From Bacteroidales bacterium (GTDB taxonomy: Bacteria; Bacteroidota; Bacteroidia; Bacteroidales; JAFGUD01): a stretch of 57,019 bases of DNA. Shown here piece after piece: positions 29,437 to 47,703 of the stretch. The stretch's first letter is position 1; the number at the start of each line of letters is the position of its first letter. The notes under the pieces are model-generated. The model ran no database searches and was not told the origin of the DNA. It saw nothing but the letters and a program-made list of their open reading frames with translations. A program made the position numbers and the translations under genes. The stretch is from positions 1 to 57,019 of the forward strand of contig JAFGXO010000011.1 of NCBI GenBank assembly GCA_016936595.1, read 5' to 3'.

Positions 29437-29656
29437 AAACTTAAAATTTTAAACAGTTTACCAAAATTATTTTAAATTTTGGTATAAATAATTAAAGCTC
29501 AATAATATAAATAATTTTTTAAAGCTCTAAACTTGCATTGATAATTTAAAAACTACAAAGTTTTTTTGTTTTTTTTAGTTTAGTTTGCAAAAATAATATT
29601 TTTTGGAATAAAATCTATTCTATTTAAAATAATTGGCAGATAACTTTATTTTTTGT

Positions 29657-29687
29657 AAAAAAAGGCAGAATTTTTTAAGTTCTGCCT
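29657..29687 (-). terminator. Rho-independent terminator of the BNR-T9SS gene
   Basis: AGGCAGAA/TTCTGCCT stem with T-run on the minus strand. Confidence 0.75.
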
Positions 29688-29702
29688 AAACTAACTGTAT
29701 AA

Positions 29703-31550: not shown

Positions 31551-31576
31551 TTTTTAGTTTTTTTTTTGAATAAAAA

Positions 31577-31603
31577 GTATGCTACCGAAAAACGGCAGCA
31601 TAC
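31577..31603 (-). terminator. Terminator-like hairpin between the two smaller T9SS genes
   Basis: GTATGCTGCCG-loop-CGGTAGCATAC followed by TTTTTATT on the minus strand. Confidence 0.7.
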
Positions 31604-31633
31604 AAACATAACCTAAACCTAATCTTATATTTC

Positions 31634-33769
31634 TTATTTTATAATAATTTTGTGATTTATTGAAATATTATTGTTTTTAAATTCAATAAAATAAATTCCT
31701 TTTTGATTTTTACTTAAATCAACATTTGCTTGGGTAATATTACTGTTTTTATAAATAATTTTTCCGTTTACATCAAAAATTGTAATATTTACAATGTTTA
31801 CACTTTGAATAGTAAATATCCCATTACTTGGATTTGGATAAATAGAGATATTTGCATTTGTTAAATCATCAATAGAAAGAGGTGAAAGACTAATATCAAC
31901 ATCTTCGTTAGCAGCATTAACAGTAAAATCGGAAGAATAATTTTCAAATCCGGCAGCAGCAACGTCAAAATTGTAAGTTCCATCAACTAAATCAATTGTA
32001 GCAACACCGCTTGCATCAGTAGTAATTGCAGAGTATCCGTCAACAGTAATATCAGCTCCCAAAACAGGGTTAGTATTTTCATCAACAACTGTAAAAGTTA
32101 CAGTGTATTCAGTTGGAATAACTTCAACTAAAGTAACATTTACTGTTTGATTTGTTCCATTTACAGTAAAAGAAGAAGAATAATCTTCGTATCCGGCAGC
32201 AGCAACGTCAAAATTGTATGTGTCGTCGAATAAATTAATAGTTGCTTCGCCGCTTGCATTAGTAGTAATAGCAGAGTAACCATCAACAGTGATTTGTGCT
32301 CCGGAAATAGGATCAGTATTTTCATCAACAACATTAAAAGTAACGTCATAACTGGTTCCGCAACCACCGGCAACGTTAATGTAATTCATTTTAGTTACTG
32401 TAACAGGACTATTACTGTAAGTAGAATTTGTAACAACAAGTTGTATTGCATAACAACCGGCTTGATAAAATTCAACAGAAGGGTTTTGGTCAGTATTAGT
32501 TGTGAAATTTGTGAAATTCCAGTGTACTCCTGCGGCACCGGGACTAACAGCCCATTGATAAGTAGTTGTTCCCGAAATTGGGTCTCCGTTTGAAACAGAC
32601 ACGTTACTTGTAAAATCAGTAGAACCATTTAAATTAACACTTGTTGGGCTTGCAGAAAAGTCAGCCATTAATTGTGGGGCTAATTCTATGGTTATATAAT
32701 CTGTTTTTGTTTCGGTTTGAGTATCGGGTGTAAAGTTTGCATTAGTAATTGTTTGAGTTACAGTATAAGTTCCGGGTTGAGTAAAACGAACAATAGGGTG
32801 AGCCGAATTAGCATCAGTTCCTTCAAGGTATTGAACATTATTGGGGGTAAATTCCCATGTAAAAGAAGATCCATTATCAAGAGGGTACGATAAATTGAGC
32901 ATTTTAAATTCATCATCTGTATTCCCTGTAGTACTTGAAGCACCCGAAGTGTTGTTAACAGCAATAAAATCAACTTCTATAGCATCATAAGGTTTTTGCC
33001 ATTGTAAAGTATGAGTAGTAGATTTTGCTGAATTTGAAACAACATAGCTCAATACAGGTCCTTGTACACCTTCAACAAACCAGTAATAAGCATCATCAGA
33101 AACAGTGCTTGTTACAGCAGGTGATCCATTCATCATCAATTGAATTTGAAAATCTTCGGTAACATGAACTCTCATTGCATTAAGATATACTTTATGTGGG
33201 AGAATAAGGGTTCCATAGGCATCACAATCAAAGTGGTATTCTCCTAAATTAGGAATGATAGCTTCGTCTTCTCCTACTCCGTCCATATACCAACCACCTG
33301 TTGCACCAAAAGGCACTACGTCGTGAGAAGTTTGGTAAGTAAAATTATCAGGGTAAAGTTGAAGTGGTCCGCCGTCGTATGCTAACCATATTTCAATACC
33401 TCCGTCATTAGCGTAAAAACCAGAACGGTTCCATTGTGTTCCTCCATTATTGTCAAAGTAAAAATAACCGTTACTACCTGAGTTAAGTTGTTCGGCTACG
33501 TCAGCGTCGGTCATAATATCAACGTGAGGTTTGCCTGTTGGGTCAAGATAATCAAAAATATTGTGATCTCCGTCGGGCACTAAAGCAGAAAAATCCCAAA
33601 TTACATTTTCGCCATCAGCACCGGGATCAAAAGCGTCTGCTCCAAATATTGAGATATAATCAACATTATCGTTTACAATAAAGCAATTATCTGCGGCAGA
33701 AATAGTTACTTGAGAAAAACTGTATGCAGAAATTAAAAGCATCAGAATGAATAAATTAATTTTTTTCAT
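31634..33769 (-). CDS. T9SS-secreted protein with two PKD-like and two Cna-B/carboxypeptidase-regulatory-like repeats
   Basis: Signal peptide, PGADGENVIWDFS and DAYGTLILP N-terminal domain, two PKD-like units, duplicated YxVTFxVVDENT...AAAG(Y/F)E units, CTD IYPNPSNG...KIIIK. Confidence 0.85.
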   Translation of the reverse strand: MKKINLFILMLLISAYSFSQVTISAADNCFIVNDNVDYISIFGADAFDPGADGENVIWDFSALVPDGDHNIFDYLDPTGKPHVDIMTDADVAEQLNSGSNGYFYFDNNGGTQWNRSGFYANDGGIEIWLAYDGGPLQLYPDNFTYQTSHDVVPFGATGGWYMDGVGEDEAIIPNLGEYHFDCDAYGTLILPHKVYLNAMRVHVTEDFQIQLMMNGSPAVTSTVSDDAYYWFVEGVQGPVLSYVVSNSAKSTTHTLQWQKPYDAIEVDFIAVNNTSGASSTTGNTDDEFKMLNLSYPLDNGSSFTWEFTPNNVQYLEGTDANSAHPIVRFTQPGTYTVTQTITNANFTPDTQTETKTDYITIELAPQLMADFSASPTSVNLNGSTDFTSNVSVSNGDPISGTTTYQWAVSPGAAGVHWNFTNFTTNTDQNPSVEFYQAGCYAIQLVVTNSTYSNSPVTVTKMNYINVAGGCGTSYDVTFNVVDENTDPISGAQITVDGYSAITTNASGEATINLFDDTYNFDVAAAGYEDYSSSFTVNGTNQTVNVTLVEVIPTEYTVTFTVVDENTNPVLGADITVDGYSAITTDASGVATIDLVDGTYNFDVAAAGFENYSSDFTVNAANEDVDISLSPLSIDDLTNANISIYPNPSNGIFTIQSVNIVNITIFDVNGKIIYKNSNITQANVDLSKNQKGIYFIEFKNNNISINHKIIIK
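31886..32350 (-). repeat. Intragenic tandem duplication of about 240 bp (two Cna-B-like domains)
   Basis: Shared DNA blocks such as TCCGGCAGCAGCAACGTCAAAATTGTA and CAGTATTTTCATCAACAAC-like sequence in both copies. Confidence 0.8.
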
Positions 33770-33803
33770 GTTTTTTTTTTTATGTTTTATAATTGGAATT
33801 GAA

Positions 33804-33865
33804 CAAATTTACTTTAATGAAAAAAAAAATGCAAAATTGTTTTGTCTAAATTCATAAATCAATAC
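33804..33865 (-). promoter_or_regulatory. -7 box plus 22-bp operator-like motif upstream of the PKD-T9SS gene
   Basis: Minus-strand TAAATTTG (33804-33811); GTCTAAATTCATAAATCAATAC (33844-33865), 32-bp gap. Confidence 0.65.
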
Positions 33866-33933
33866 ATATTGTTAATTTTATTGTTATTTAAAACGCTTTA
33901 AGATAATTGTTTAAAATTATTTAATTTCTGTTT

Positions 33934-36900
33934 TTAATTTTTAAAAAGAATAAATTTTTTAGTGAATATTTTTTGATTTTGAATAATTATCACATTGTAA
34001 ATACCCTGAGCAAGGTAGTTCAATTCATATACATTGTTTTTATTTTTTGGATTAATGTCTTTAATTTTTTTGCCTGTAATATCAAAAATTGTGATAGTTG
34101 TATTTGGTTCCGGAATGTCAATGAAATTAACAAATAGATTCATTTTATTTGAATAAATAAGAATGTTTGAATTAATAACATTAGTATTATTATTAGAATT
34201 TGTTTGATGTTTGAAAATAATTTTAAAACGATTTCTGTATGTTCCTATATTAGAGTAAAAATCATAAGTATTGTTTTTTGTTAAATCTGTTTCTGTATTA
34301 TTTTGTAAATCAATCAAATAAGGCGTAATGCTGTCCGGGAGAATAAAATCATTCATTGTAATTGAAAATTGTCCGGCAGTTCCGGTTTTAAACCCAAGAT
34401 TAAGTATAGAATTAGTGTCAATTTCCGGTAAACTGTTAATTGAAAGGTTTATACTATCATCGCTTAAACTGAAAAGATACGGAACGTTAACAGAATAACC
34501 AACTAATTTAATGGCGTCTAATTGTCCGTCATAATTTTCTGTAGCTTCGGGAATAAATCTAAGTATAGTTTCATCTGTGTATTGATTATTATAAGCAGTT
34601 AGTCTTAATTGATTAGGTTCTTCAAAATTTGATTTATAAAAAGGTACATCGTTGTGAATACGAGCACTATTGTTAACGGTTATAGAAGCACCGGGGCTAT
34701 TGGCTTTAACAAAGAATGATTGGCTAAGAGGTATGCAACCTGAAACTCTGTTTAAAACTACTGAAGGATATGGATTAGTATAAGATTCGGGTAAAAAGTA
34801 CGAGTAATTATTGTAAGCTCCGGATCCATCATCAATATAAAAATATATTGCACCATCAATATTGGTTTTTGTGATATTGTTGTTGTCATACCAATTTAAT
34901 GTTGAAGGATAAGGGTTTCCAATTAAATTCCAGCCGTCAAAAATTGAGTTGCCATGTGTTGCAGTATTATCTGTATAGCTTAAATTATAAGTTATTTCTC
35001 CGGTATTTAATTCTCCTGTAAATTCAACAGTTGCTTGATTTTGATATGTAATATATCCTTGCATTATGTTCATATTACTACCGCTTGCAGGGAATATCCA
35101 GCCCATTAATCCTCCCGAAAAATTTTGCATATTCCAGCTGTCTTCAATAGTTTCATCGTAAAAATAAAAATTATTTGGGTGAAACAAGTTAACAGAAGCT
35201 GAGGTAATAGGACTGGAAACATAGTGCCACATCAATGGACTGATATATCTTTGAACAGTAGTTGTTTCGATGCCGTAATTTACTGTGCTTTTATTAATAA
35301 ATGAGCCTGTTCCGGTAGCATCTGATTGAATAATAAAAGTTCCATTTTGGTTCATTATTCCCCAAACAGTTAGATATTTATTTGGAGCAATGTATAAATG
35401 AGAACCTGTTTGAATTGTTAGATTTTTTGTTTCTGCCAGATTATCAATATTGCTATTAGTTTCAGGAAAATTGCCTCCAACAGGTGTTGTTGGTATTATT
35501 ACATTTGTTGCATTTGAAATGTATGTATTTGGCTGCCAGTTGGTTACTGTGTTCCAGTCGGTATTTGTATTTCCTGTCCAAATAACGCTACCAAGATATT
35601 CGTCAGCTCCGATGTAGGGTGGATATTGTCGGGTTTCGCCATCAAAATCAGTTGATATTCCTGTTGTATTATCGCCGGCTTGTAAACCTGCATTTTCGGT
35701 ATGTAAATTATCAACAGATAAATACATTGGGTTAATGGTTATTGAATTAGCACCTTTCCCTGTAAAATCAGGCATAAAGTTGTTATAATTTTCAGTAGAA
35801 TTTGTTAATACTGCTGCATTGAAACTATTAGCTGAAGCTGATACAAAATTATTATTTTTGATGCTTAAAAAATCTGCTGTATTTATATTAATTCCGGCTC
35901 CATTAGTTGATAATACATTTGAGCTGTTGAAAAATATATCAATATAACCTGAATTTCCTGTGGCGTTTTCGATATTTATTCCATAACTTGTTCCACTACC
36001 GTTTCCGATAGAAAACATATTATTAATAACAAGAGCTTTGTTTCCGGCAGTGCCCAAAACATTATCTAAAAATAAACCATAACCATTAGCTTGTAATGCA
36101 ACAACATTATTTTGTGAAATAATTGATTCATTGTTGCATGTTGTTAGCGAAATTCCTCGGTAATCGGTTCTATTGGAAATTGAAACAATTGAGTTGTTTA
36201 TAATTACAGGAGTATTTACATTGGTTAAAAATATTCCTGAAAAAGATTGATTATTAAATGCGTTATGAGACAAACTAAGACCGGAAATATTTTGAGTTGC
36301 ATTTTTCCCGAATAAATTTAAGCCATAACTTCCGTTATTAAATACACAATTATAAAAATTAAAATCAGAAGAGTTAGTTAAAGTTTCAAACTCGTAAATT
36401 AATGCGTAATTGTCTGAATTATCAGAAGTTTGAACACCATTAAAAGTGCAATTTTCAAAATTTATGTAATGATTATTTTCAGCTATTTCGATAACACGTC
36501 CGTTGGTGTTTCCGAGAGCATTAAAGCTAAAATTTTTAAACGTGATATAACTTGTTCTGTAAAGTCTTAAAGTGTAGTTATTAGTTGCATCAGCATCGTG
36601 TTCTAAGATTGCTTGTCCACAGTCGTCGCACCAAGTTTCAAATGTGATTGTGTTAACATCGCTAACACCGCAGATTGTGCCAATTTGAATTTGTTCGTTA
36701 AAAGGAACATCTGCAACATCAAAGTGCACAGGACCACTAACTCCGTACATTTCTAAACTGTCAACGGCAGCTTGAATTGAAGGATAGTTAACTTCAGAAG
36801 GTTCGATAGTAAAGTCTCCGGACATTGCAACAATAGGATTAAAAGCAACGTTTCCTTCAAGTAAAATTTGAAAATCGCAGGTATTACCGGAAACACCATC

Positions 36901-39900
36901 AATAGTTATATAATATTGTGTATCGGGGTACAAATCTAAAGGATTCCAAACAATATCGCTTTCATCACCAGGATAAGCACAAAAAACTTCGGTGTGATTT
37001 GCCGGATCGCAAGCAGGTTCGGCATCAAGTCGAGTTATGGCTATTTGAATTCCAGTTCCTCCGGGTGAACAAACAATATTTTGAAAAGTAACTGAAACTT
37101 CGCCCCCACGGCAATTAGTTGTAAAATAGTACCATGCAGTATTTTCGAGTGTTACACCGGAACAGCCGGTAGTGCTAAAATTTGGGTCTTCTAATGGGTC
37201 CCATGTTGCATTACTGTTGCTTGTTGCATTAGTTACGGCATCTACAATTTCTATTGCAGCATCACAATGATCATTACAAGTAGGGAAATTTGCAACGTCA
37301 GCATAAATTGTGTCGTTAATAGTTATTTGATCTTGTTCGCCGTTTGGGCTATCGATCCAAACTGTAAGTTCACTTGTTGGCGGATTAACATTGAACATTT
37401 GTAATTCTGTTATTCGAATATAGTTAGTACTACCTTCGGCATTAGTAATATTTATTCTGAAGTACCGAAAAGGAATTGTGTTATCAAAAGTAAATACTTT
37501 CCATTCGTTCATTAAAATATTACCATAAACTTTGCTGTCAAGAGTAGTCCAAGAAGAGCCGTCGTTTGAGCCTTGAAATTGCCAAGTTCCCGGGTTATAT
37601 TGTTCGTTATTCCAACTTCCGGGGGTCTGAGTAGAGCTGCAATATACCCGGTAAGCATTAACTGCTTGTTCGTTGCCGGCACCAAGATCAACTTGTAACC
37701 AACTTGGCAATGAGTTATTGTTAGCCCAACCGGTAGTAGTTATGTTATTGTCGAAAGCAGCAGCAGCAGAATTGCCTGCGTAGCTGGAACTTGCAGAAGC
37801 TATTCCGCTTGCAGCCAAATTATTGCTCATATCTAAGCCATTGGGTATTGTAATTGGAGAAATTGTAACAATATCTGAGCTCCCGGCAGGAATATTTACA
37901 GCGTAATTGTTAGTAACTGTTGCTCCGCCATCAATAATGTAACTAATATTTATTGATGTTAAAATATCGGGTTCAGTAGCAACTCCTCCGTTATTTATGG
38001 CTAAATCAGATACTTCCCAGCAAGAATTTACGTCCATATTAGTAAGAGAGCCATTGTATCCATTGCCTGTAATATCAGAAACAGAATAACTACCAGTGTT
38101 TTCTTCCATTTGATAGTAGGCAACAAGGTTAGGTTCTGTTCCGGTTAATGATCCACAAATTCCGTTTCTGATTTCAGCTTCACTTAGGGCTATGTCCCAA
38201 ATTTTTACTTCATCAAGGTTTATATTTGAAGAGTATGTGTTGTTGTTTTTTCCGCCAAAATTCCATTCAGCCGAAGGAATAGTAATATTTGCGGTATAGT
38301 TGTAAACATTTTCTCCGTTTACGTATAATTTTATGCTTGAACCATCAGAAACCCATGCAACATGCGTCCATTCTCCAACGGGCAGATAAACCGCTGTTGT
38401 TCGCCAGCCTGTAGCCGGAGTATAAAATCTAAGTTGCCCATTTGTTTCTTTTGTTGTTTCAAATCTATCGCCTGCAACGCTCGTAATTCTGTCGTAGGTG
38501 CCGTCTGTTCCGTTGTGTTTTACATAATATTCAACAGTAAAGTTGGTAAAAGCCGGTAAAGTACCAATTGTTACCATATCATTTGAACCATCAAATTTTA
38601 ATGAAGTTTGACCATCAAATCCACATGGGTCAAATAGTTGGCAAAAATTATTTCGGTTTGCTATTTCTACTTCTAAGTTGTATTCTTGTCCATAGCAACC
38701 TGTTAAATTAGTGATTTCTGCGTCAATTCGGGCATCGGAAATTGTAAAATTATCAAATGCAAAGTAGTAGTAGTAAGGATTATTGTAATATGTACGTCCA
38801 ATAATTCTAAACTTCACACAAGTTTCATCTTTTAAATTACAAAGAGTATGTTCAACATAAGTCCATTCATCAACAGGATTTCCTAAATTATTAGTCCACC
38901 AATTTGTGCTACCGGAATACCAATTGGGATCAGAATTTGTTCCGAGTTGAAGCCACGAAACTCCTCCGTTTGTAGAATATTCGACATGAAAATAATCGTA
39001 ACTTGTGTGATATAAATGATATTTAACGTCCATTGATAGGATAGGATTTTCTAATCCGGTAAAGTCAAAAACCGGACTTTCAACCCAATAATAATCCCAT
39101 TTTCCGTTTGTTGTAACTTCGGTAAACCAACTTTGTCCGTTATTTTCGTTTCCCTCAAGATAATCAAATTGTCCAAGAACAAATTTTCGTCCATTGTTAT
39201 CAGGTGGATTATCTCCGCTTGATGTCCAATATTTTGATGTTGTTGGATTGTTGAAATTTTCAAAGTATGGAAAAGTTGAAATTAGAGTGTCGTTTACAGT
39301 AATAGATTGATAAATGGTGTCGTTTTGGTTATTAAAATCGGTTAATAAGCTCGAAAAAGTTTTTAAATAGTAAGTTCCGAGTGTTCGCATGTCAATATTT
39401 GTAGCAAATGTGTAATTTACGTATGTTTTAGCCGGAATATCAACATTTCCAATAAGGGTTTGAGTAATAGCACCGGTAATTTCGCAAGTTATTGGTACTG
39501 AGGTTAAATCGGAACAAAATGGATTATAAACTGTTACTGTAACCGGTTGATTTTCAATAAAAGTGCAATGTTCCTGGTCTTCAGTGGGGGTAACATATTC
39601 AGTTACGGCTGCGTCGGTGATTTGGTCGTAAATCCAAAAATTATCAAAAGCAAATTGATTATATCCTTCATTAATATAATAAGTTCGGGCTTTTACTCTA
39701 AATTTTACACAGTCTTCGCCTGCCAAAAAACATACATCATGCTGCATTTTAGTCCATTCGATTAATGGATTTGTATTGTTTGCTGTCCACCAATTTGTTG
39801 AGCCTGAATACCAGTTATAATCAGCACTTGTTCCAAGTTGTATCCATGTATCGCCTCCATCTAAAGAATATTCTAAATTAACATAATTATAAGAGGAATG

Positions 39901-42900
39901 GTAAAGAGAGTATTTAATATCTAAAAATATACTTGGTTCGGTAAGAGATGAAAAATCGAATACCGGACTTTCAACCCAATAGTAGTACCATTTTGCATTA
40001 GTTGTTACTTCAGTGAACCAACAATCGCCTTCACCATCGGAGCCATTAAGATAAGGTAACGTTCCATGAATAAAATTTCTGCCTGTTTCTATGTCAGGTG
40101 GGAAATTTGGTGAATCTCCGCCTGCTTTCCAGTATCCTGTTCCGCTATTAAAATCTTCTATATATGGAAAAGAAGAAATTTTAGGATATTCCACAACAAT
40201 CGAAGAGCTCGTATTATCATTTGAATTGTTGGGATCGCCAACAAAAATTGTATATGCGTTTAGATTATAAGTTCCTACGGGTGTCATATCAAAACTTCCT
40301 GTTAAGGTAAAATCGGTATAACTTTGTGCCGGAACAGTAGGAACAATGCCAGTTAAAGTTGCTGTTGCAGCACCGGTTACATCACATTGTACCGGTACAT
40401 TAGTTGCGTCTGTACACGACCAATTATAAACTCTAACAGTTACAGTTTGATTATCAATAAAAGTACAACCTGCTAAATCGGGAGTAGGGTCAAGAATTTT
40501 AGTTACTCCAACATCTTGTGCATCAATTATTTTGAAGTTGTCAAAAGCAAATTGGTTATAACCTTCGTTAATGTAATATGTTAGAGCTCTGATTCTAAAT
40601 TGAACACAACTCTGACCAGCAAGCATACATAAATTATGTTGCATTTGCGTCCAATCTTCAATTGGGGCAGCATTATTGTTTGTCCACCAATTTGTACTGC
40701 CTGAATACCAGTTTGGGTCGGCAGATGTGCCGAGCTGAGTCCAATTTGTGCCTCCATTAGTTGAATATTCTACGTGAACATAATCGTAAGACGAATGATA
40801 TAATGAATATTTTACATCAAAATATAAAATAGGATTGGAAATAGTTGTAAAATCAAAAATAGGGCTTTCAACGTTGTAATAATCCCATTTTCCGTTTTGT
40901 TTAACTTCAGAATACCATGAATTTCCCTGACCTTGAGCTCCATTAAGGTATGGAGGCTCGCCATATCTGAAATATCTGTGGTTCGCATCGGGTCTTGACA
41001 CCCAACCTTGATTATCTGCATTAAAATCAGCTAAATAAGGGAATGTGTTTATAGGTGTGTTAATTCTTGTTTCTGTTAAATTATTATTAGAATTGTCGCC
41101 ATCAGTAGATAAATTAGTAGTAACAGAAATTGTGTGAGTTCCTGGAGCAGATAAATCGGCAGTGGTTGTAAAGTTGTATAAATAAGTGTCAAAACGGTTA
41201 ATTGGTCCTGGTACAATTTCATTAATAATTGCACCACCGTCAATTTGAATAGAAATTGGAATGTTGTACAAAGGGCGACATTTATTGTTGATAATAAGAA
41301 CTTGTACATTTTCGGAGTTGGAATATCCACTGCAATTACCACCATCAGCAAGAGTTATTTGAATTGGTTGAGCATCATCGCTTTCTCCTCCTGAAATTTC
41401 GAAATTATCAAATGCAAATTCATTATAACCGACATTTATGTAGTATGTTCGTGCTTTTATTCTGAATTTAACGCATGGTTCGCCCGATAGTTCGCATAAA
41501 TCGTGTTCAACGTGTGTCCAAGTATTCACCGGGGTCGTATTATTTGCAGTCCACCAATTAGTAGAGCCTTGATACCAATCGGGGTCGGCGTTTGTGCCGA
41601 GTTGCGTCCAATTTGAGCCTCCATCTAAAGAATATTCTACATGAACATAATTGTAAGAAGAGTGGTAAAGAGAGTATTTAATGTCCATTGAAAGAGTGGG
41701 ATTTGTGTTTTGAGAAAAATCAAAAACCGGACTTTCAACCCAATAATAATCCCATTTAGCATTTGTTGTAATTTCGGTGTACCAACAATCCCCTTCTCCT
41801 TCGGGTCCGTTAAGATATGGTAATGTTCCGTGAACAAATTTTCGCCCGTTGTTGTCGGGAGGATTATCTCCGCCTGCAGTCCAGTAACCATCACCTGAGT
41901 TAAAATCTTCGAGATATGGGAATGTGTTTATTTTAGGGAAATCGACAGAAATATCTACATTAACGGTATCGTTGTTGTGGTGAGTATCTCCAATAAGTTG
42001 AGAATAAGCTTCGAAATTATATAGTCCCATAGGCGTCATGTCAAAAGTGCCTGTGAAAGTGTAACTTGTAGAACTTTGAGCCGGAATTGTTGAAACAATG
42101 CCGTTTAGTGTTATTGATGGAGCATTTGGGTGTCCTGCCGGAAATGTAATAATGCATTCAACCGGAACGTCAGAAATATCACCACAACCGAAATTTTCCA
42201 CCTCAATTGTAATTGTTTGATTAGATGAATATAAACACCCTGATGCATTTGCATTGGGATCTAATAAAGCTGAAACGCCAACTTCGGGTTGGTCAGTAAT
42301 TTCAAAATTATCGAAAGCAAATTGATTGTATCCATCAGTTAGGTAGTAAGTTCTGGCATATATTCTAAATTTTACACAACTTTTTTCAGCCGGTGTAAGA
42401 GCAGCAATGTTGCACAAGCTATGTTGCATCGTAGTCCATTCATCAACGGGGTTTGTATTGTTTGCTGTCCACCAGTTTGTTGAACCGTTATACCAAAAAG
42501 GGTCGGCTGAAGTTCCGAGTTGTGTCCAAGTAGATCCTCCATTTGTTGAATATTCTACGTGAACATAATTATACGAAGAGTGGTAAAGCGAATATTTAAC
42601 ATCAAGAAATAAAGTAGGGTTTGAAACACCGTTTAAATTAAAAACCGGACTTTCAACCCAGTAATAGTCCCATTTTCCGTTTTGAGTTATTTCAGTATGC
42701 CAAGAATTTCCTTCACCTTGTGCTCCATTTAAATAAGGTAGTTCTTGAAGTCTAAAATATCTATGATTAACAGGAGTTCTTGAAACCCATCCTCCATTCC
42801 CGGAGTTAAAATCTTCGAGATAAGGATAAGTAGAAATAATCCCATTTATTCTTGTTTCGGTTAAAACATCGTTAGTATTGTTGTTGTCTGTTGGTAGATT

Positions 42901-44619
42901 TGTTGTTACAATTATAGTGTGGTTTCCTGCAGAACTTAAATCGGCTGTTGTGGTAAAATCGTACAAATAGGTGTCAAAACGAGGGATAGGTCCGGGCACA
43001 ATTTCGTTAATAATTGCACCACCGTCAATTTGAATAGAAATAGGCATATTGTAAATTGGACGGCAAGTGTTATTTTTCAATAAAACTTGCATTGGTTCAG
43101 TGTTATTAAAACTGCTACAAGTTTTTGAATGAGTTAAAGTTAAGGCAATAGGTTCAACATCATCAGCTTGAGTTTCAGAGATTTCAAAATTATCAAAGGC
43201 AAATTGATAATATCCATCATTTTGATAATAAGTTCTTCCTCTTATTCTAAATTTCACACAAGTTTCGCCCGAAAGATAGCATAAATCGTGCTGAACATGT
43301 GTCCATGTGTTTATGGGAGTAGAGTTATTTGCAGTCCACCAGTTTGTTGAGCCTTGATACCAATCAGGGTCTGCATTTGTTCCAAGTTGTGTCCAATTTG
43401 CACCATCATCTAAGGAATATTCAACATGAAAATAATCATAAGAAGAATGGTAAAGAGAATATTTTATATCCATTGATAATGTTGGGCTAGTGTTTTCGGA
43501 AAAGTCAAAAACCGGACTTTCTACCCAATAATAATCCCATTTGCCATTGTAGTATCTTTTAACTTCCGAAAACCAAGAGTTTCCTTGTCCGTCCGGACCG
43601 TTTAAGTATGGTAAATTACCCCACGAAAATTGTCGTCCGTTGTGAGTTGGAATTGCATTATTAGGTTGAGTAGGATTATCGCCGTATTCAAACCAGCCAT
43701 CACGTGAAGAATTAAAGTTGGCAAGATAAGGGTAAGTTTGAACATATTGTCTTCGTCCAACTTTAAAATTGTTGTTTGCCATGTATCCGTCGCCGGCAAG
43801 AGTTGCGGTAATATCAAAATGATAAATATCATCAGCCGACATATCAAGATTTGCAACAAATACATCAACAAAGCCATCAGCAGGAATGTTGATTCCCGAA
43901 CCGCTCCAAGAACCTGTTTGTCCGCCGGAAACATTTACTGTCCAACTAACATTTGTAACATCTTCGTTACTGTAATTAAAAAGCCTAATTGTAACATTTT
44001 CTGCATTAGAATAGGTTTGTCCGCAATTTAAATAAGCCGGACTAACAAGTTTAGGAACACCTACATCGTTTCCACTATAAACAACAATATCGTCAATGTA
44101 CCAATATTTTCCAACAGCACCGCTTTCATAGTATCTAAATCTAATCTTAACATCAGTTTGATTTGCAGCTATTGCCGAAATATCAACAATAGTTTTATTA
44201 GGAGTAGTTAGGCTTCCTACTGTAGTACCACTGTTATCTAAAAAAATTGTCCATGTAGTTCCGCCGTTTGTAGATACTTCAAAATATCCGTGTGTATTTT
44301 CAACAGCGTGCCAAAATTCGTAAAAACTAACTTTCACAGAAGTCATTCCAGAACAATCAAAAGAATTTGTTTGAATATAGGCTTCGTTAGGAGTAGTTCC
44401 GGCACCAAGGCTTTCGTCGTCAAAAACGGCATAAAACCCTCCGCTTGGGCTCGAAAATCCGGGATTATCTTTTATAACCCAGTTATATGAGCCTTGAAAT
44501 TTGTTTATTGTCCAACCCGTAGGAGTGGTACTTGAACTAAAAGTTTCTTTAAGAACAATATCTGCATTTGAAATGGATATATTGAAAACTAAAAAATAAA
44601 AAAGGATAATTTTTTTCAT
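33934..44619 (-). CDS. Giant T9SS-secreted multidomain adhesin/lectin-like protein (3561 aa)
   Basis: Signal peptide; N-terminal MAM-like domain; six (MAM/cleaved-adhesin-like plus CARDB-like) repeats; LamG; F5/8 type C; parallel beta-helix region; GWNLIGNPYPS region; CTD IFDITGK...QGIYNV...TKKFIL. Confidence 0.9.
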   Translation of the reverse strand: MKKIILFYFLVFNISISNADIVLKETFSSSTTPTGWTINKFQGSYNWVIKDNPGFSSPSGGFYAVFDDESLGAGTTPNEAYIQTNSFDCSGMTSVKVSFYEFWHAVENTHGYFEVSTNGGTTWTIFLDNSGTTVGSLTTPNKTIVDISAIAANQTDVKIRFRYYESGAVGKYWYIDDIVVYSGNDVGVPKLVSPAYLNCGQTYSNAENVTIRLFNYSNEDVTNVSWTVNVSGGQTGSWSGSGINIPADGFVDVFVANLDMSADDIYHFDITATLAGDGYMANNNFKVGRRQYVQTYPYLANFNSSRDGWFEYGDNPTQPNNAIPTHNGRQFSWGNLPYLNGPDGQGNSWFSEVKRYYNGKWDYYWVESPVFDFSENTSPTLSMDIKYSLYHSSYDYFHVEYSLDDGANWTQLGTNADPDWYQGSTNWWTANNSTPINTWTHVQHDLCYLSGETCVKFRIRGRTYYQNDGYYQFAFDNFEISETQADDVEPIALTLTHSKTCSSFNNTEPMQVLLKNNTCRPIYNMPISIQIDGGAIINEIVPGPIPRFDTYLYDFTTTADLSSAGNHTIIVTTNLPTDNNNTNDVLTETRINGIISTYPYLEDFNSGNGGWVSRTPVNHRYFRLQELPYLNGAQGEGNSWHTEITQNGKWDYYWVESPVFNLNGVSNPTLFLDVKYSLYHSSYNYVHVEYSTNGGSTWTQLGTSADPFWYNGSTNWWTANNTNPVDEWTTMQHSLCNIAALTPAEKSCVKFRIYARTYYLTDGYNQFAFDNFEITDQPEVGVSALLDPNANASGCLYSSNQTITIEVENFGCGDISDVPVECIITFPAGHPNAPSITLNGIVSTIPAQSSTSYTFTGTFDMTPMGLYNFEAYSQLIGDTHHNNDTVNVDISVDFPKINTFPYLEDFNSGDGYWTAGGDNPPDNNGRKFVHGTLPYLNGPEGEGDCWYTEITTNAKWDYYWVESPVFDFSQNTNPTLSMDIKYSLYHSSYNYVHVEYSLDGGSNWTQLGTNADPDWYQGSTNWWTANNTTPVNTWTHVEHDLCELSGEPCVKFRIKARTYYINVGYNEFAFDNFEISGGESDDAQPIQITLADGGNCSGYSNSENVQVLIINNKCRPLYNIPISIQIDGGAIINEIVPGPINRFDTYLYNFTTTADLSAPGTHTISVTTNLSTDGDNSNNNLTETRINTPINTFPYLADFNADNQGWVSRPDANHRYFRYGEPPYLNGAQGQGNSWYSEVKQNGKWDYYNVESPIFDFTTISNPILYFDVKYSLYHSSYDYVHVEYSTNGGTNWTQLGTSADPNWYSGSTNWWTNNNAAPIEDWTQMQHNLCMLAGQSCVQFRIRALTYYINEGYNQFAFDNFKIIDAQDVGVTKILDPTPDLAGCTFIDNQTVTVRVYNWSCTDATNVPVQCDVTGAATATLTGIVPTVPAQSYTDFTLTGSFDMTPVGTYNLNAYTIFVGDPNNSNDNTSSSIVVEYPKISSFPYIEDFNSGTGYWKAGGDSPNFPPDIETGRNFIHGTLPYLNGSDGEGDCWFTEVTTNAKWYYYWVESPVFDFSSLTEPSIFLDIKYSLYHSSYNYVNLEYSLDGGDTWIQLGTSADYNWYSGSTNWWTANNTNPLIEWTKMQHDVCFLAGEDCVKFRVKARTYYINEGYNQFAFDNFWIYDQITDAAVTEYVTPTEDQEHCTFIENQPVTVTVYNPFCSDLTSVPITCEITGAITQTLIGNVDIPAKTYVNYTFATNIDMRTLGTYYLKTFSSLLTDFNNQNDTIYQSITVNDTLISTFPYFENFNNPTTSKYWTSSGDNPPDNNGRKFVLGQFDYLEGNENNGQSWFTEVTTNGKWDYYWVESPVFDFTGLENPILSMDVKYHLYHTSYDYFHVEYSTNGGVSWLQLGTNSDPNWYSGSTNWWTNNLGNPVDEWTYVEHTLCNLKDETCVKFRIIGRTYYNNPYYYYFAFDNFTISDARIDAEITNLTGCYGQEYNLEVEIANRNNFCQLFDPCGFDGQTSLKFDGSNDMVTIGTLPAFTNFTVEYYVKHNGTDGTYDRITSVAGDRFETTKETNGQLRFYTPATGWRTTAVYLPVGEWTHVAWVSDGSSIKLYVNGENVYNYTANITIPSAEWNFGGKNNNTYSSNINLDEVKIWDIALSEAEIRNGICGSLTGTEPNLVAYYQMEENTGSYSVSDITGNGYNGSLTNMDVNSCWEVSDLAINNGGVATEPDILTSINISYIIDGGATVTNNYAVNIPAGSSDIVTISPITIPNGLDMSNNLAASGIASASSSYAGNSAAAAFDNNITTTGWANNNSLPSWLQVDLGAGNEQAVNAYRVYCSSTQTPGSWNNEQYNPGTWQFQGSNDGSSWTTLDSKVYGNILMNEWKVFTFDNTIPFRYFRINITNAEGSTNYIRITELQMFNVNPPTSELTVWIDSPNGEQDQITINDTIYADVANFPTCNDHCDAAIEIVDAVTNATSNSNATWDPLEDPNFSTTGCSGVTLENTAWYYFTTNCRGGEVSVTFQNIVCSPGGTGIQIAITRLDAEPACDPANHTEVFCAYPGDESDIVWNPLDLYPDTQYYITIDGVSGNTCDFQILLEGNVAFNPIVAMSGDFTIEPSEVNYPSIQAAVDSLEMYGVSGPVHFDVADVPFNEQIQIGTICGVSDVNTITFETWCDDCGQAILEHDADATNNYTLRLYRTSYITFKNFSFNALGNTNGRVIEIAENNHYINFENCTFNGVQTSDNSDNYALIYEFETLTNSSDFNFYNCVFNNGSYGLNLFGKNATQNISGLSLSHNAFNNQSFSGIFLTNVNTPVIINNSIVSISNRTDYRGISLTTCNNESIISQNNVVALQANGYGLFLDNVLGTAGNKALVINNMFSIGNGSGTSYGINIENATGNSGYIDIFFNSSNVLSTNGAGININTADFLSIKNNNFVSASANSFNAAVLTNSTENYNNFMPDFTGKGANSITINPMYLSVDNLHTENAGLQAGDNTTGISTDFDGETRQYPPYIGADEYLGSVIWTGNTNTDWNTVTNWQPNTYISNATNVIIPTTPVGGNFPETNSNIDNLAETKNLTIQTGSHLYIAPNKYLTVWGIMNQNGTFIIQSDATGTGSFINKSTVNYGIETTTVQRYISPLMWHYVSSPITSASVNLFHPNNFYFYDETIEDSWNMQNFSGGLMGWIFPASGSNMNIMQGYITYQNQATVEFTGELNTGEITYNLSYTDNTATHGNSIFDGWNLIGNPYPSTLNWYDNNNITKTNIDGAIYFYIDDGSGAYNNYSYFLPESYTNPYPSVVLNRVSGCIPLSQSFFVKANSPGASITVNNSARIHNDVPFYKSNFEEPNQLRLTAYNNQYTDETILRFIPEATENYDGQLDAIKLVGYSVNVPYLFSLSDDSINLSINSLPEIDTNSILNLGFKTGTAGQFSITMNDFILPDSITPYLIDLQNNTETDLTKNNTYDFYSNIGTYRNRFKIIFKHQTNSNNNTNVINSNILIYSNKMNLFVNFIDIPEPNTTITIFDITGKKIKDINPKNKNNVYELNYLAQGIYNVIIIQNQKIFTKKFILFKN
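38735..43748 (-). repeat. Six intragenic repeats with a period of about 870-920 bp
   Basis: ACCGGACTTTC(A/T)ACCCA (WVESPV) recurs near 43510, 42644, 41726, 39962 and 39071, with a variant near 40860. Confidence 0.9.
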
Positions 44620-44637
44620 GACTCATATTTTGTTCTA

Positions 44638-44699
44638 CAAATATAAGTTAAATGAAGGCATGTAATAAGACTAATATGTCTTGATTTGTAAATTTGGAC
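44638..44699 (-). promoter_or_regulatory. -7 box plus 22-bp operator-like motif upstream of the giant adhesin gene
   Basis: Minus-strand TATATTTG (44638-44645); pseudo-palindrome GTCTTGATTTGTAAATTTGGAC (44678-44699), 32-bp gap. Confidence 0.65.
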
Positions 44700-44711: not shown

Positions 44712-46604
44712 TTATCTAAAGGATTCCATTTCTTTTTTGAAAAAAGCAGGAGTTACTCCGGTGTTTTTTTTGAATACGGAGTAGAAAGATGATCTGCTTT
44801 TAAATCCAACTAAGTCGGCAATAGCGTCTAGGGTTAAGTTTTTGTGTTTTGGAGAAATGAGCAGTTTTTGAGCTTCGTCAATTCTAAAGTCGTTAATGTA
44901 TGTATTGAAATTTTTATTGTATTCGTAATTTATAAATTTGGACAAATAAAGTTTGTTTGTATTAAGTATTTTGCTCATTTTATCTAAAGTAATGTCCGGG
45001 TCTAAAAATATTTTTTCTTGAATAAGTTTTTCAACGCCTGTTTTTAAAATTTCAAGTTGTTCCGGTTTTAGCCCAATATCTTCTGCTTGTTTTTCGTAAT
45101 TTTTATCAATAATTTCTTTTTTAATTTCAAATTCTTCTTTTATATCATTTTTGTGTTTTTTTTCCACGATTTGAATGTTTTTTTCCACAAGCATTTTGTA
45201 CGATTTATTTAATTTGCGATAAAAAACTGCTGCAATTGTTACAAGTAAAACAAACACAGAAAAAGCTATTTCAAAAAACAGCAGTAATTTTTTTTGGCGT
45301 TGAATTTCGAGTTGGTTTAGTTGGAGTTTTTTGTCTTTTTTTTCAGTTTCATAATTCAGTTTTAACTGATTTATTTTAAGACTATTTTCGATATTGTACA
45401 GGCTGTCTTTTAAACTTGTATATTTTATATGAAAAGAATATGCTTTATTGTAATCTTTTTCAGCAAAAAATAAATCGGAAAGTGCTAAATAGTTTTCTTT
45501 TTCTAATTCTTTATACCCGGTTTTTTTAGCAAATTCTATGCTTTTATAAAAACTATCTTTAGCTTTTGTAATATCTTTAATACTAATGTATAACTTACCG
45601 AAAAGATGGTATGTTGCTGATAAATAAGTTATTAGTTGATATTGTTCAAATATTTCTTTTGCTTGATTTAATAAATCGGAAGCTTCTATGAGGTTGTTTT
45701 GTTTTATAAAAATTTCGGCAATATTTGTTTGGGCTACAGCATACATAATTTCATCATTTAAATCATATGATAATTTTGAGGATTTTTTAAAATAATACAG
45801 AGCTGAGTCTAAATTTTCTAAGTTTGTATAGATGTTACCAATATTGTTATAAACTGTAGCTAATCCTTTATGATTATTTAAATTTTGATATATTTTTCTT
45901 GCTTGATTGTAATATAAAAGTGAGTTGTAAAAGTCTCCGTCTGTTGCATACGTCATTGCAATGTTATTTTTTGAAGATGCTTGAGCTTCGGCGTAATTCA
46001 TGCTTTCTGCTAATTTAAGTTCAATTAAAAAATAATCAATAGCTTTTGCATAATTGGATTTCATGTAGTAGGTCATACCTAATCGTTCATAAGATCCAAT
46101 TATTGATACTGTGTCGTCTAATTTTATATAAATATTCAATGCTTTATTGAATAAACTCTCGGCAAGTTCGTAGTTTTCAGTAAAATAATGAAGCCTTCCT
46201 TTCATAAAACAAATTCTTCCTTCTATTTTTGGAGAATTTGTTTTTCTTATTTCATAGTATGCCGAATCTAAATATAGAAGAGCTGTATCAATTTTATTTT
46301 CTGTTTCAAATGTTGATGAAATTATGATGTAAAAACTACTTGATTTTTCGCTAATGTTGTTTTTTTTTGATAACTTTAATCCTTTATTTGCGTAAGTTCT
46401 TGCAAGTTTAAGGTTTTTTTCAGAGTAATAATTAGATATTTTTGCGTAAAGTTCTATTTTTTCAGGAGTATCTGCGATATTTAACAAATTTATTAAGCTG
46501 TCAACGTTTTCACTAAATGATAATTTTGAAAATCCAATGATTATTAATAAAATTATAAAAAATTTATATTTTAAAAAAGATATGTTTTTTGAAATATTTA
46601 TCAT
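44712..46604 (-). CDS. Membrane-spanning TPR-repeat sensor with C-terminal AraC HTH
   Basis: N-terminal signal/TM, multiple TPRs (YNNIGNIY, NNIAMTY), TM LLLFFEIAFSVFVLLVTIAAVFY, AraC motifs FLDPDITL...YLSKFIN...FNTYINDFRI...VGFKSRSSFYSVFKKNTGVTP. Confidence 0.92.
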   Translation of the reverse strand: MINISKNISFLKYKFFIILLIIIGFSKLSFSENVDSLINLLNIADTPEKIELYAKISNYYSEKNLKLARTYANKGLKLSKKNNISEKSSSFYIIISSTFETENKIDTALLYLDSAYYEIRKTNSPKIEGRICFMKGRLHYFTENYELAESLFNKALNIYIKLDDTVSIIGSYERLGMTYYMKSNYAKAIDYFLIELKLAESMNYAEAQASSKNNIAMTYATDGDFYNSLLYYNQARKIYQNLNNHKGLATVYNNIGNIYTNLENLDSALYYFKKSSKLSYDLNDEIMYAVAQTNIAEIFIKQNNLIEASDLLNQAKEIFEQYQLITYLSATYHLFGKLYISIKDITKAKDSFYKSIEFAKKTGYKELEKENYLALSDLFFAEKDYNKAYSFHIKYTSLKDSLYNIENSLKINQLKLNYETEKKDKKLQLNQLEIQRQKKLLLFFEIAFSVFVLLVTIAAVFYRKLNKSYKMLVEKNIQIVEKKHKNDIKEEFEIKKEIIDKNYEKQAEDIGLKPEQLEILKTGVEKLIQEKIFLDPDITLDKMSKILNTNKLYLSKFINYEYNKNFNTYINDFRIDEAQKLLISPKHKNLTLDAIADLVGFKSRSSFYSVFKKNTGVTPAFFKKEMESFR

Positions 46605-46758
46605 AAAGTAATAGTGGATTAGGCTGTTTTCTGTGGCTAAGTTTGCTCTTTTTTATTTAACAAAAATAAAAAAAAAGGCATCAATAAAATAAAAAAAAGA
46701 ATTTTTGTTAAATTTGTTTTTTAATCGAGTATAATGCTTTTTGCAAATTTAGACAAAT

Positions 46759-47178
46759 ATGTTGAAATATATCATTTTAATTTTTATAGTATTTTCTGCT
46801 TTTTTAGCTGAATCTCAGACTGATACAATATCATATATTAAAACAATTAATGGTTATCAATTTGTGTATCAAGATCAAGAGTTGTCCCTTTTTAAGTTGA
46901 GTAAAATTGTTAAAACTTGCCAAGACGCAAAAAAAGAGATGAATAAAGCCGAATTTATTTGGCTTAGTTCATATCTTTTTAGTTACACGGGGGGGTACAT
47001 TGTTGGTTATATTTTAGGCGGAGCTTTATTTGGTGCTGACATCAATTATGAGCTTTTGGCAATTGGAGGAGGGCTTGTACTTGTTTCAATTCCTTTAAAT
47101 TTGGCAATTTCAAAGCATACCTTACTTGCAGTGCAAATTTTTAATAAAAATTCTAATTACACCCATTTTTATGATTAA
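46759..47178 (+). CDS. Hypothetical exported/membrane protein
   Basis: Signal peptide plus Gly-rich hydrophobic hairpin. Confidence 0.65.
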   Translation: MLKYIILIFIVFSAFLAESQTDTISYIKTINGYQFVYQDQELSLFKLSKIVKTCQDAKKEMNKAEFIWLSSYLFSYTGGYIVGYILGGALFGADINYELLAIGGGLVLVSIPLNLAISKHTLLAVQIFNKNSNYTHFYD

Positions 47179-47193
47179 TTTATAATTTAAAGT

Positions 47194-47703
47194 ATGAAAT
47201 ATTTTATTGTTTTGATTTTTTCTTTTTTATTAGCTTGTCAAAAAGACACCTGCAACGAAAGTTTAGGTTCCACTTTTATGAATGTTCAGCTGGATAGTTT
47301 AAAAATTGATATAAATAATGATGTAGATATCAAGCTTAAATTAAGCACTTTAGATGCTTTACCTTTAAATTATTTTACCGATTTTAATTTAATTTTATCT
47401 GATAATAATCCGCAGGGCTACTGGTGGCATAATGCTGCTCCTGCTATTGATACGATTTTTGTGAATAATGAAAAAATTCAATTCACAATATTAAATGATT
47501 CTTTACCGATAATTGGAACATCATTAAAATATGATTTTCATTTAGTATTTCCTGATCGAAGAAATTATATTTCGTGCGAACATTTAGGTTCTTCAGATTG
47601 TTATTATTTGGATTTTAGCTTTGTTTTAAAAAAAGTTGACACCTTAAATTATCAAATATCCGACTTTTATTGGGACGAAACACTTAATAAAGGTGGTTTT
47701 TGA
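47194..47703 (+). CDS. Hypothetical lipoprotein
   Basis: Lipobox LLAC followed by QKD; no family recognised. Confidence 0.65.
   Translation: MKYFIVLIFSFLLACQKDTCNESLGSTFMNVQLDSLKIDINNDVDIKLKLSTLDALPLNYFTDFNLILSDNNPQGYWWHNAAPAIDTIFVNNEKIQFTILNDSLPIIGTSLKYDFHLVFPDRRNYISCEHLGSSDCYYLDFSFVLKKVDTLNYQISDFYWDETLNKGGF

Follow-up and report, generated by a model that had tools for sequence, protein, structure and literature searches.

We found that a 22-bp dyad, GT(C)(C)nrATTTnnnAATnnnrAC, lies at the same distance upstream of the predicted promoters of two T9SS cargo genes and that it recurs beside genes for homologous regulators across the order. Judged from sequence, it is probably (about 0.7) the cognate activator site of the regulator encoded next to it, a 630-aa protein with a TPR region and a C-terminal AraC-type DNA-binding domain. 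The window, by which we mean the whole 57,019-nucleotide stretch of DNA that was analyzed, contains the following relevant features.

31634..33769, minus strand: T9SS type A cargo gene, 711 aa, with PKD, CarboxypepD_reg, and Por_Secre_tail domains
33804..33811, minus strand: predicted -7 box (TAAATTTG) for the 711-aa gene, with site A 32 nt upstream of it
33820..33829, no strand: A10 tract, read as T10 on the gene strand, between the -33 and -7 elements of the 711-aa gene promoter
33832..33835, minus strand: the -33 TTTG in the 711-aa gene promoter, separated by 8 nt from site A upstream and by 20 nt from the -7 box downstream
33844..33865, no strand: site A, the weaker copy of the putative operator; gene strand, GTATTGATTTATGAATTTAGAC
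33934..44619, minus strand: T9SS type A cargo gene, 3561 aa, with choice-of-anchor J, Reelin subrepeat B, Laminin_G_3, and F5/8 type C domains
44638..44645, minus strand: predicted -7 box (TATATTTG) of the 3561-aa gene, with site B 32 nt upstream of it and the ATG 18 nt downstream
44678..44699, no strand: site B, the putative 22-bp operator, dyad-symmetric, 12 nt past the regulator stop codon; gene strand, GTCCAAATTTACAAATCAAGAC
44712..46604, minus strand: regulator gene, 630 aa, with a predicted N-terminal signal/anchor, TPR region, coiled-coil-like stretch, one TM helix, cytoplasmic linker, and C-terminal AraC-type HTH
46740..46754, no strand: TTTGCAAATTTAGAC, a half-site look-alike, with a -7-like TAAATTTG on the minus strand at 46744-46751

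The regulator, the cargo genes, and their predicted promoters

Both cargo proteins end in a sorting domain that scored above the TIGR04183 cutoff of 23 bits, as T9SS type A cargo should: 46.7 bits for the 711-aa protein and 27.8 bits for the 3561-aa protein. The 711-aa protein also matched PF18962 at 52.8 bits (cutoff, 27). In the regulator, Pfam identified TPR_12 (1e-30), HTH_18 (2.6e-13), and HTH_AraC (1.7e-9). Residues 544 to 624 scored 50.5 bits against PF12833 (cutoff, 33.6) and 38 bits against PF00165 (cutoff, 26.6), and this part of the protein matched in sequence the solved AraC-type domains 6swi, 3oou, and 3lsg. The regulator thus ends in the roughly 100-aa domain, with its two helix-turn-helix motifs, that marks the AraC/XylS proteins. 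These scores confirm that two T9SS cargo genes lie beside a TPR-AraC sensor, as the earlier note on this DNA had claimed.

We found two hydrophobic segments in the regulator, at about residues 14 to 32 and 439 to 462 (hydropathy peaks, 7 to 34 and 437 to 465). The peaks flank the TPR region, the second is followed by K/R-rich sequence, and the HTH lies at the C terminus. Hydropathy, together with the order of the domains, leads us to predict that the protein joins an extracytoplasmic TPR sensor, a single TM helix, and a cytoplasmic part (about residues 465 to 630) with the AraC DNA-binding domain in one chain. Pfam found neither an OmpR-type winged helix nor kinase domains in it. The FimS-type TPR sensor kinase model NF053520 matched residues 197 to 475 at 114.3 bits, against a cutoff of 600.

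Site A (GTCTAAATTCATAAATCAATAC on the plus strand) is identical to the reverse complement of site B at 18 of 22 positions. The best 22-mer window between the two regions reached 19/22, and by eye the match runs on to 23/27 by way of a common ATATT. The gap between site and box is exactly 32 nt at both promoters, and both boxes lie on the coding (minus) strand. The coordinates and sequences therefore bear out the claim of two 18/22 copies, each 32 bp upstream of a TAnnTTTG box. In this alignment, the two copies face opposite ways with respect to their genes, which is of little consequence given the dyad symmetry of each site (14/22 positions self-complementary).

The housekeeping promoter of Bacteroidota has a -33 element, TTTG. 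Its -7 box is TAnnTTTG, as given in PMC7641319. By the pattern of TAnnTTTG with TTTG about 19 to 21 nt upstream, the predicted promoter of the 711-aa gene (promoter A) is complete, with an exact -7 box and TTTG 20 nt upstream of it. The predicted promoter of the 3561-aa gene (promoter B) likewise has an exact -7 box but, unlike the housekeeping promoter, carries CTTA in place of TTTG at the -33 position. Promoter B, which has a good -7 box but lacks TTTG at -33, should depend on an activator. Promoter A, with its full -33/-7 pair, may be partly constitutive.

The dyad in the ortholog and across the order

The pair of sites alone says little. We compared real upstream regions of the genome of the window (G000), trimmed to 164 and 92 nt, and found that 8.1% of 2998 random pairs reached at least 18/22 and 1.1% at least 19/22. 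A degenerate-pattern test gave 3 matches against 0.13 expected, but its pattern was derived from sites A and B, which makes it circular. The A/B match is within chance, and its significance therefore comes from relatives.

The genome collection yielded one true ortholog, in G001, whose regulator is 54 to 55% identical with a near-invariant HTH. The gene order there is the same as in the window: regulator, giant cargo, second cargo. We found GTCCAAATTTGTAAATTCGGAC 20 nt past the G001 regulator stop, followed by a 32-nt spacer and then TATATTTG. The spacers of G000 and G001 are identical at only 15/32 positions, and their length is kept. The exact core, GTCNNNATTTNNAAATNNNGAC, occurs once in G000, at site B, once in G001, in the orthologous place, and not at all in G002. 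G001 has no site A; only 20 bp separate its two cargo genes. In both G001 and G273, about 390 to 420 nt separate the conserved promoter from the large ORF downstream, a point against the proposed function because the large ORF may not be the immediate product there. In metagenomes, a single-protein scan found no close relatives, and an alignment scan returned only distant homologs at 33% identity or less.

In other families of the order, the dyad, as GT(CC)nrATTTnnnAATnnnrAC, lies directly 3' of genes for TPR-TM-AraC homologs. Its GT, ATT, AAT, and AC (G1, T2, A7-T9, A14-T16, A21, and C22) are invariant across families, as are the outer G/C positions. Among 49 newly fetched 300-nt regions downstream of homologs, 10 scored above the 99% shuffle level (7.0), 6 of these 49 regions exceeded the 99.9% level (13.1), and 39 had no detectable site. 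With the reversed matrix, none of the same 49 regions rose above the level (maximum, 1.9). In a separate set of 10 homologs, three had a site with at most three core mismatches and one more had a site with four. Across 18 regulator loci (72 kb), all four matrix matches above 10 fall after the regulator stop, and the reversed matrix gave none. Exact-core matches in other genomes of the order lay downstream of AraC-HTH genes in 2 of 11 cases. One of these two loci encodes, in order, a TPR-AraC protein, a 1539-aa T9SS cargo protein, and a second TPR-AraC protein with its own site 16 nt after the stop.

The spacing recurs as well. We looked for TAnnTTTG within 100 nt of 17 sites. Exact boxes occurred only at offsets 31 (one site), 32 (four sites), and 43 (one site), and boxes with one mismatch at offsets 32 (four sites) and 33 (one site). 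Thus, 10 of the 17 sites have, 31 to 33 bp downstream, a -7 box that is exact or off by one position; in some relatives the spacer is 42 to 43 nt, which would predict dependence on helical phase. TTTG was found at offset 8 in four sites, and G036, G010, and G076 share this offset with promoter A.

We then scored the 3.34-Mb genome of the window with a matrix built from 10 foreign sites. Site B ranked first (26.2), and site A was the second-best intergenic match (17.5 on the gene strand and 15.2 inverted). A genome-wide scan found no further credible intergenic sites beyond these two, and the family matrix found none in the other upstream regions of the window (31551-31633, 29437-29702, and 46605-46758). 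The bare exact core occurred in 13 of 401 genomes order-wide versus 17 for the reversed control, which is no enrichment. In a class-wide sample, the composite pattern of site, 31 to 33 nt, and TAnnTTTG matched twice in G000 and once each in eight other genomes, versus three genomes with control matches, which is near background; none of the eight adjoins a homolog.

The genes downstream of the regulators vary and encode T9SS type A and type B cargo, a 205-aa protein, and proteins of 136 to 138 aa. The sole constant neighbor of the element across the sampled loci is the regulator gene. The earlier note had spoken of a small regulon of surface proteins; what stands is two linked promoters in the window, with targets in relatives that are often, not always, T9SS cargo. 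A variant subfamily of three regulators with its own HTH2 signature has a variant dyad, GTCCATAT-N6-ATATGGAC. Apart from this subfamily, a comparison of HTH residues with site type found no obvious recognition-helix difference in the regulators without a site.

Proposed function and rival explanations

The site lies a few bases past the regulator stop; downstream of it, 8 bp separate its end from the -33 position of the next gene, and 32 bp separate it from the -7 box. It is upstream of the core promoter, where activators bind, and not over the promoter, where repressors bind, which points to activation. In our model, the regulator would bind the site upon a signal sensed by the TPR region and would then recruit RNA polymerase. 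It is probably a dimer, since the site is dyad-symmetric. Dyad symmetry is unusual for AraC/XylS proteins, which counts against the model. The weaker copy, site A, would serve the second cargo gene with the same geometry. The idea that the element is the activator site of the adjacent TPR-AraC protein, put forward in the earlier note, fits the site, spacer, and -7 box conserved in the ortholog, the dyad after the stops of homologs, and the recurring 31 to 33 bp; from this fit we infer binding by the AraC domain.

It is highly improbable that the two AT-rich promoter regions resemble each other by chance and share no element. Random pairs do reach the A/B identity at the rate given above, the core with at most two mismatches occurs at 34 places in G000, most of them within coding sequence, and the genome-wide reversed-matrix maximum (18.1) exceeds the score of site A. 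Against this, site B, the spacer length, and the -7 box are kept in G001 despite the diverged spacer sequence, the dyad recurs after homologous regulator genes and the controls recur after none, and the spacing recurs too. Conservation thus refutes a chance origin for site B; site A on its own, with no G001 counterpart, may be a chance match. We also consider it very unlikely that the palindrome is the terminator of the regulator gene or another 3'-end RNA hairpin. In favor of this reading, the stop codon is only 12 to 20 nt away from the element in both G000 and G001, the copy in G273 has a folding energy of -8.8 kcal/mol (z = -2.4), and a look-alike in G078 is a terminator-like hairpin (-21 kcal/mol, then a T-run) after a Reg_prop/Y_Y_Y-AraC gene, for which reason we dropped that perfect palindrome as an operator copy. 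In G000, however, the site B palindrome lies outside the minimum-energy fold (-4 kcal/mol, with other bases paired), shuffled versions of site A fold about as well as the site itself (z = -0.03), and the G001 copy reaches -5.7 kcal/mol (z = -1.5). A scan of both window regions for a G+C-rich stem with a T-run gave no terminator-like sites. The differences between copies are non-compensatory, what is invariant is primary sequence (GT, ATT, AAT, and AC), and the element keeps a fixed distance to the -7 box. In G010, a separate terminator hairpin lies between the regulator stop and the site, and the terminator and the site are therefore distinct elements.

A real promoter-upstream element could instead be bound by another factor, such as another transcription factor or polymerase itself, as with an AT-rich UP-like element. 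UP elements sit where this element sits, upstream of the promoter; the element is AT-rich, and the many homologs with no detectable site would also fit. We regard this as unlikely. With only two high-scoring intergenic places in G000, the element is not shared by promoters in general; the sampled loci have it only beside this regulator family, and its outer G/C positions do not vary.

Two further proposals of the earlier note were not supported. Slippage in the A10 tract was suggested to tune activation of the first promoter, and a change in its length would alter promoter geometry, since the tract lies inside the 20-nt -33/-7 spacer. Such a switch is very doubtful and unsupported here: the genome contains 169 A/T tracts with a length of 10 or more, of which 132 lie between genes, a density of about one in every 4 kb of intergenic sequence. 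No tract of this kind is present in the site B spacer or the G001 promoter, and in a comparison of contigs, that of a relative about 91% identical has 29 substitutions and 0 gaps over 33534-33870. The supposed partial third copy at 46740-46754 scored -6.9 with the family matrix, consists of GTC plus the -7-like box, and is not conserved in G001.

Comparison with known systems

AraC/XylS activators with upstream sites include AraC, RhaS/RhaR, MelR, and MarA/SoxS/Rob at class I promoters. The system described here resembles them in its C-terminal two-HTH domain, in its roughly 20-bp site ahead of the core promoter, and in a regulator encoded beside its putative target. It differs in that the site has dyad symmetry and stops 8 bp short of -33 rather than overlapping it, that an extracytoplasmic TPR sensor is predicted to act through a membrane helix in place of a cytoplasmic ligand-binding domain, and that the promoter is of the Bacteroidota -33/-7 type.

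ToxR, TcpP, CadC, and PsaE are membrane-bound one-component regulators. The ToxR/CadC kind has an N-terminal OmpR-type winged helix and a C-terminal periplasmic domain; our regulator has the opposite order and an AraC-type DNA-binding domain. ChiS of Vibrio is described as another membrane-bound one-component regulator (bioRxiv 10.1101/2020.01.10.902320). Like these proteins, the 630-aa regulator is predicted to sense outside the membrane and bind DNA inside within one polypeptide, with targets near its own gene. We thus predict that it works like the ToxR/CadC kind without being a member. The TPR sensor region is similar to that of the FimS-type TPR sensor kinases of Porphyromonas (NF053520); here there are no kinase domains, and the output would be direct DNA binding. 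Hybrid two-component systems with AraC output adjoin PULs in Bacteroides. They likewise couple sensing in the periplasm to an AraC-type output, and the regulator adjoins the locus that it controls. Our regulator differs in having no phosphorelay domains, a TPR sensor, and targets that are mainly T9SS cargo, not PULs.

The T9SS secretion machinery is reported to be controlled by PorXY-SigP (PMC7712824). Beyond PorXY-SigP, the timing of production of individual T9SS cargo proteins in Bacteroidota, especially giant adhesin-like ones, is little understood. A full-text literature search, with most subscription journals outside its scope, returned no paper on this regulator type or operator. The uncharacterized and widespread TPR-TM-AraC architecture, which recurs across families of the order, gains a candidate DNA site, a promoter geometry, and candidate targets. 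The system would add an AraC-type example of membrane-tethered transcription control and would yield regulator/operator pairs as genetic parts in Bacteroidales.

We also propose, tentatively and at somewhat less than even odds, that Bacteroidales carry many self-contained sensor-operator-cargo cassettes. In each, a dyad operator would follow the regulator's own stop with fixed 8/32-bp geometry, the next gene would often encode a giant T9SS surface protein, and regulation would act in cis because a tethered domain reaches mainly nearby DNA. Operator variants would have co-diverged with their regulators (GTCC..ATTT/AAAT..GGAC versus GTCCATAT/ATATGGAC) and, if so, would give orthogonal regulator/operator pairs.

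One candidate in G000, the paralog C187 (HTH, 54% identical), was rejected: it has no canonical site (best score, 4.1), and a different palindrome is present. At the look-alike locus, the Reg_prop/Y_Y_Y-AraC gene stands beside SusC/SusD/GH97.

The locus and its two 22-bp elements

The draft genome (G000; 3.34 Mb, 29.8% G+C), of which the window is contig C163, carries a regulator gene and both cargo genes on the minus strand:

44712-46604, minus strand: 630-aa regulator, TPR repeats and C-terminal AraC-type HTH
44678-44699: site B
44638-44645: TAnnTTTG box of promoter B
33934-44619, minus strand: 3561-aa protein, T9SS type A sorting domain above NCBIfam cutoff
33844-33865: site A
33804-33811: TAnnTTTG box of promoter A
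31634-33769, minus strand: 711-aa protein, T9SS type A sorting domain above NCBIfam cutoff

The TPR part of the regulator is similar to the sensor part of FimS-type kinases; the regulator itself lacks a kinase domain. Hydropathy gave an N-terminal signal/anchor and one transmembrane helix (about residues 439-462) with a K/R-rich stretch after it; in the predicted topology the TPR part lies outside the membrane and the HTH inside. Two ORFs divergent from the regulator (46759-47178 and 47194-47703, plus strand; 139 and 169 aa) had no Pfam or NCBIfam matches.

Each feature described in an earlier note was present at its given position. As that note reported, sites A and B are alike at 18 of 22 positions, and an exact TAnnTTTG box lies 32 nt downstream of each. 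According to PMC7641319, TAnnTTTG is conserved as the -7 box in Flavobacterium and Bacteroides. The note aligned the sites as copies inverted to each other on the gene strand. We found that each is itself dyad-symmetric (GT/AC at the ends, ATT/AAT inside), so orientation carries little weight; with the family matrix, site A scored 17.5 in the gene-strand orientation and 15.2 when inverted. Among 2,998 random pairs of real G000 upstream regions, 8.1% reached at least 18/22 and 1.1% at least 19/22. By itself, the A/B pair is weak evidence. The core with up to two mismatches occurs at 34 places in G000, mostly within genes. One look-alike with a single mismatch lies in the regulator's own HTH-coding region (44922-44943; C277:73425-73446 in the related genome G001). 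Because this stretch codes for the conserved SKFIN(Y/I)E, a coding coincidence is the probable explanation and an autoregulatory site the less probable one.

We searched the 100 nt downstream of 17 sites, on the gene strand, for TAnnTTTG. Exact boxes were found at offsets 31 (one site), 32 (four sites) and 43 (one site) and nowhere else, and one-mismatch boxes at 32 (four sites) and 33 (one site); counting both kinds, 10 of the 17 sites had a box at 31 to 33. Offsets of 42 to 43 nt, one helical turn longer, were found in G081 and in both G273 copies, the latter with a weaker box. TTTG stood 8 nt past four of the 17 sites. These offsets therefore give the architecture site, 8 bp, -33, 19 to 20 bp, -7, which, on the sequences compared, is common to a subset of the TPR-AraC family in the order. 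The -33 consensus of Bacteroidota promoters is TTTG. TTTG at -33 is present in promoter A and missing in promoter B and its G001 counterpart, a pattern from which we infer that the giant-gene promoter B would be activator-dependent and promoter A stronger and less dependent.

Conservation and linkage to the regulator family

In the genome and metagenome collections searched, G001 held the only true regulator ortholog; the metagenome scans returned distant homologs and nothing closer. The two regulators are 54 to 55% identical, with a nearly invariant HTH, and G001 keeps the gene order (regulator, 4303-aa giant cargo, 782-aa cargo). Twenty nucleotides past its regulator stop we found TTTTTA-GTCCAAATTTGTAAATTCGGAC, 32 nt and TATATTTG; the 32-nt spacer is identical to that of G000 at 15 of 32 positions. 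Each of these genomes has a single exact core, at the orthologous place; the third genome of the genus lacks it. As judged from this comparison, a phylogenetic footprint covers site B, the -7 box and the distance between them. Only 20 bp separate the G001 cargo genes, and site A is therefore specific to the G000 lineage.

Between the conserved promoter and the ORF lie about 390 nt in G001 (L021 16749-17130, stops in all frames, ending at the giant ORF's ATG) and about 417 nt in G273 (L054 13053-13470). A short ORF (about 35 aa) shortly past the site is conserved between the two G273 cassettes. A long leader, a small peptide or an sRNA could account for these gaps.

The bare core was not enriched among 401 genomes of the order (13 genomes versus 17 for the reversed control), and 2 of 11 exact-core matches outside the genus, one in G273 and one in G078, lay directly downstream of AraC-HTH genes. 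The G078 match was rejected as an operator because its strong hairpin and T-run are terminator-like: the perfect palindrome GTCCCAATTTATAAATTGGGAC (L055 12159-12180), with the operator's core, is followed by TTTTT and has a folding energy of -21 kcal/mol. On one side of it is a Reg_prop/Y_Y_Y-AraC gene, in whose 931-aa product we found no kinase or receiver domains, and on the other a SusC/SusD/GH97 locus.

In G273, the dyad comes after a TPR-AraC gene and before a 1539-aa T9SS cargo gene and a second TPR-AraC gene; this second regulator gene has a two-mismatch dyad 16 nt past its stop and then another large gene. Three of 10 homolog loci had dyads with at most three core mismatches 11, 15 and 68 nt past the stop, and a fourth had a four-mismatch candidate at +9. 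Over 18 homolog loci (72 kb), four matrix matches exceeded 10, all downstream of the regulator, and the reversed matrix gave none. We then scored the 300 nt downstream of 50 more homologs matching from the juxtamembrane region through the HTH (49 used, one being too short), with a matrix from six sites and thresholds from 1,960 shuffles (99%, 7.0; 99.9%, 13.1). Ten of the 49 exceeded the 99% level and six the 99.9% level, two of these six (G124 and G127) being closely related and not independent; the highest reversed-matrix score was 1.9. Nothing was detected in the other 39 regions of 300 nt, and the canonical element is therefore confined to part of the family.

Three regulators with their own HTH subfamily (signature VGYKSKTAFNNAFKK in the second HTH) are followed by a variant dyad, GTCCATAT-N6-ATATGGAC, at +255 in L074 (G085), +147 in L079 (G059) and +37 in L072 (G140; GAAC in this copy). 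They may form a second regulator/operator specificity class. TPR-AraC genes also form arrays: regulator and cargo alternate twice in G273 (C1, L054), four regulators share one G127 contig (C42, 113-134 kb), and G124 has two (C38, 10-13 kb). In tandem regulator pairs, the dyad follows only the downstream regulator. A paralogous TPR-AraC gene in G000 (C187, 8319-10121, minus strand) has a different palindrome, GTGCAAAATCATCATTTCGCAC, 2 nt past its stop (about 8295-8316), and a TAAATTTG box just 5 nt on, a geometry unlike that of sites A and B.

Function of the site and its targets

G001 conservation, family linkage and spacing make the earlier note's main reading the best supported: the element is a putative cognate upstream activator site of the membrane-tethered TPR-AraC one-component regulator. 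Binding of the regulator to the site, the direction of regulation and the signal are what we infer from sequence. The literature searched held no description of such a regulator/operator system.

A palindrome downstream of a stop could instead be a terminator or RNA hairpin. This does not hold here: the minimum-energy fold leaves out the site B palindrome, site A folds no better than shuffled copies, and a scan found no terminator-like sites in either region. Substitutions between copies are not compensatory, 11 of the 22 positions are identical in all 10 foreign sites, and in G010 a distinct terminator lies upstream of the site. A general UP-like element is unlikely, since in the loci sampled the motif was restricted to those of TPR-AraC regulators. 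Another, unlinked transcription factor could conceivably bind the site.

We scanned G000 using a matrix of 10 sites, all from other genomes. Site B was the top match of the whole genome (26.2), and site A (17.5) ranked third, or second when intergenic places alone are counted. The highest score with the reversed matrix was 18.1, above that of site A, which is therefore credible solely by position and spacing. By matrix score there was no site upstream of the regulator, the third T9SS gene or other window neighbors. The partial copy listed in the earlier note at 46740-46754 fell away: it scored -6.9, is a -7-like box and differs in its G001 counterpart. Outside G000, five loci have T9SS cargo downstream of the site: G001, G273-1, G081a, G027 (type B domain) and G081b (third gene downstream). 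Its place is taken by a 205-aa protein in G055 and by 136- to 138-aa proteins in G124 and G127.

The A10 tract and a close relative

The A10 tract (33820-33829) lies within the -33/-7 spacer of promoter A, and its slippage had been suggested to tune activation. A/T runs of at least 10 nt are common in G000 (169, 132 of them intergenic), and a contig of a relative about 91% identical aligns over 33534-33870 with 29 substitutions and without gaps; slippage is therefore unsupported at the contig level. The relative's alignment stops at 33870, five bases past site A. In its contig (runs X3 and X4), 33871-34059, about 190 nt comprising the giant gene's 3' end (T9SS sorting domain) and the distal intergenic part, is replaced by diverged sequence of the same length, and the flanks align.
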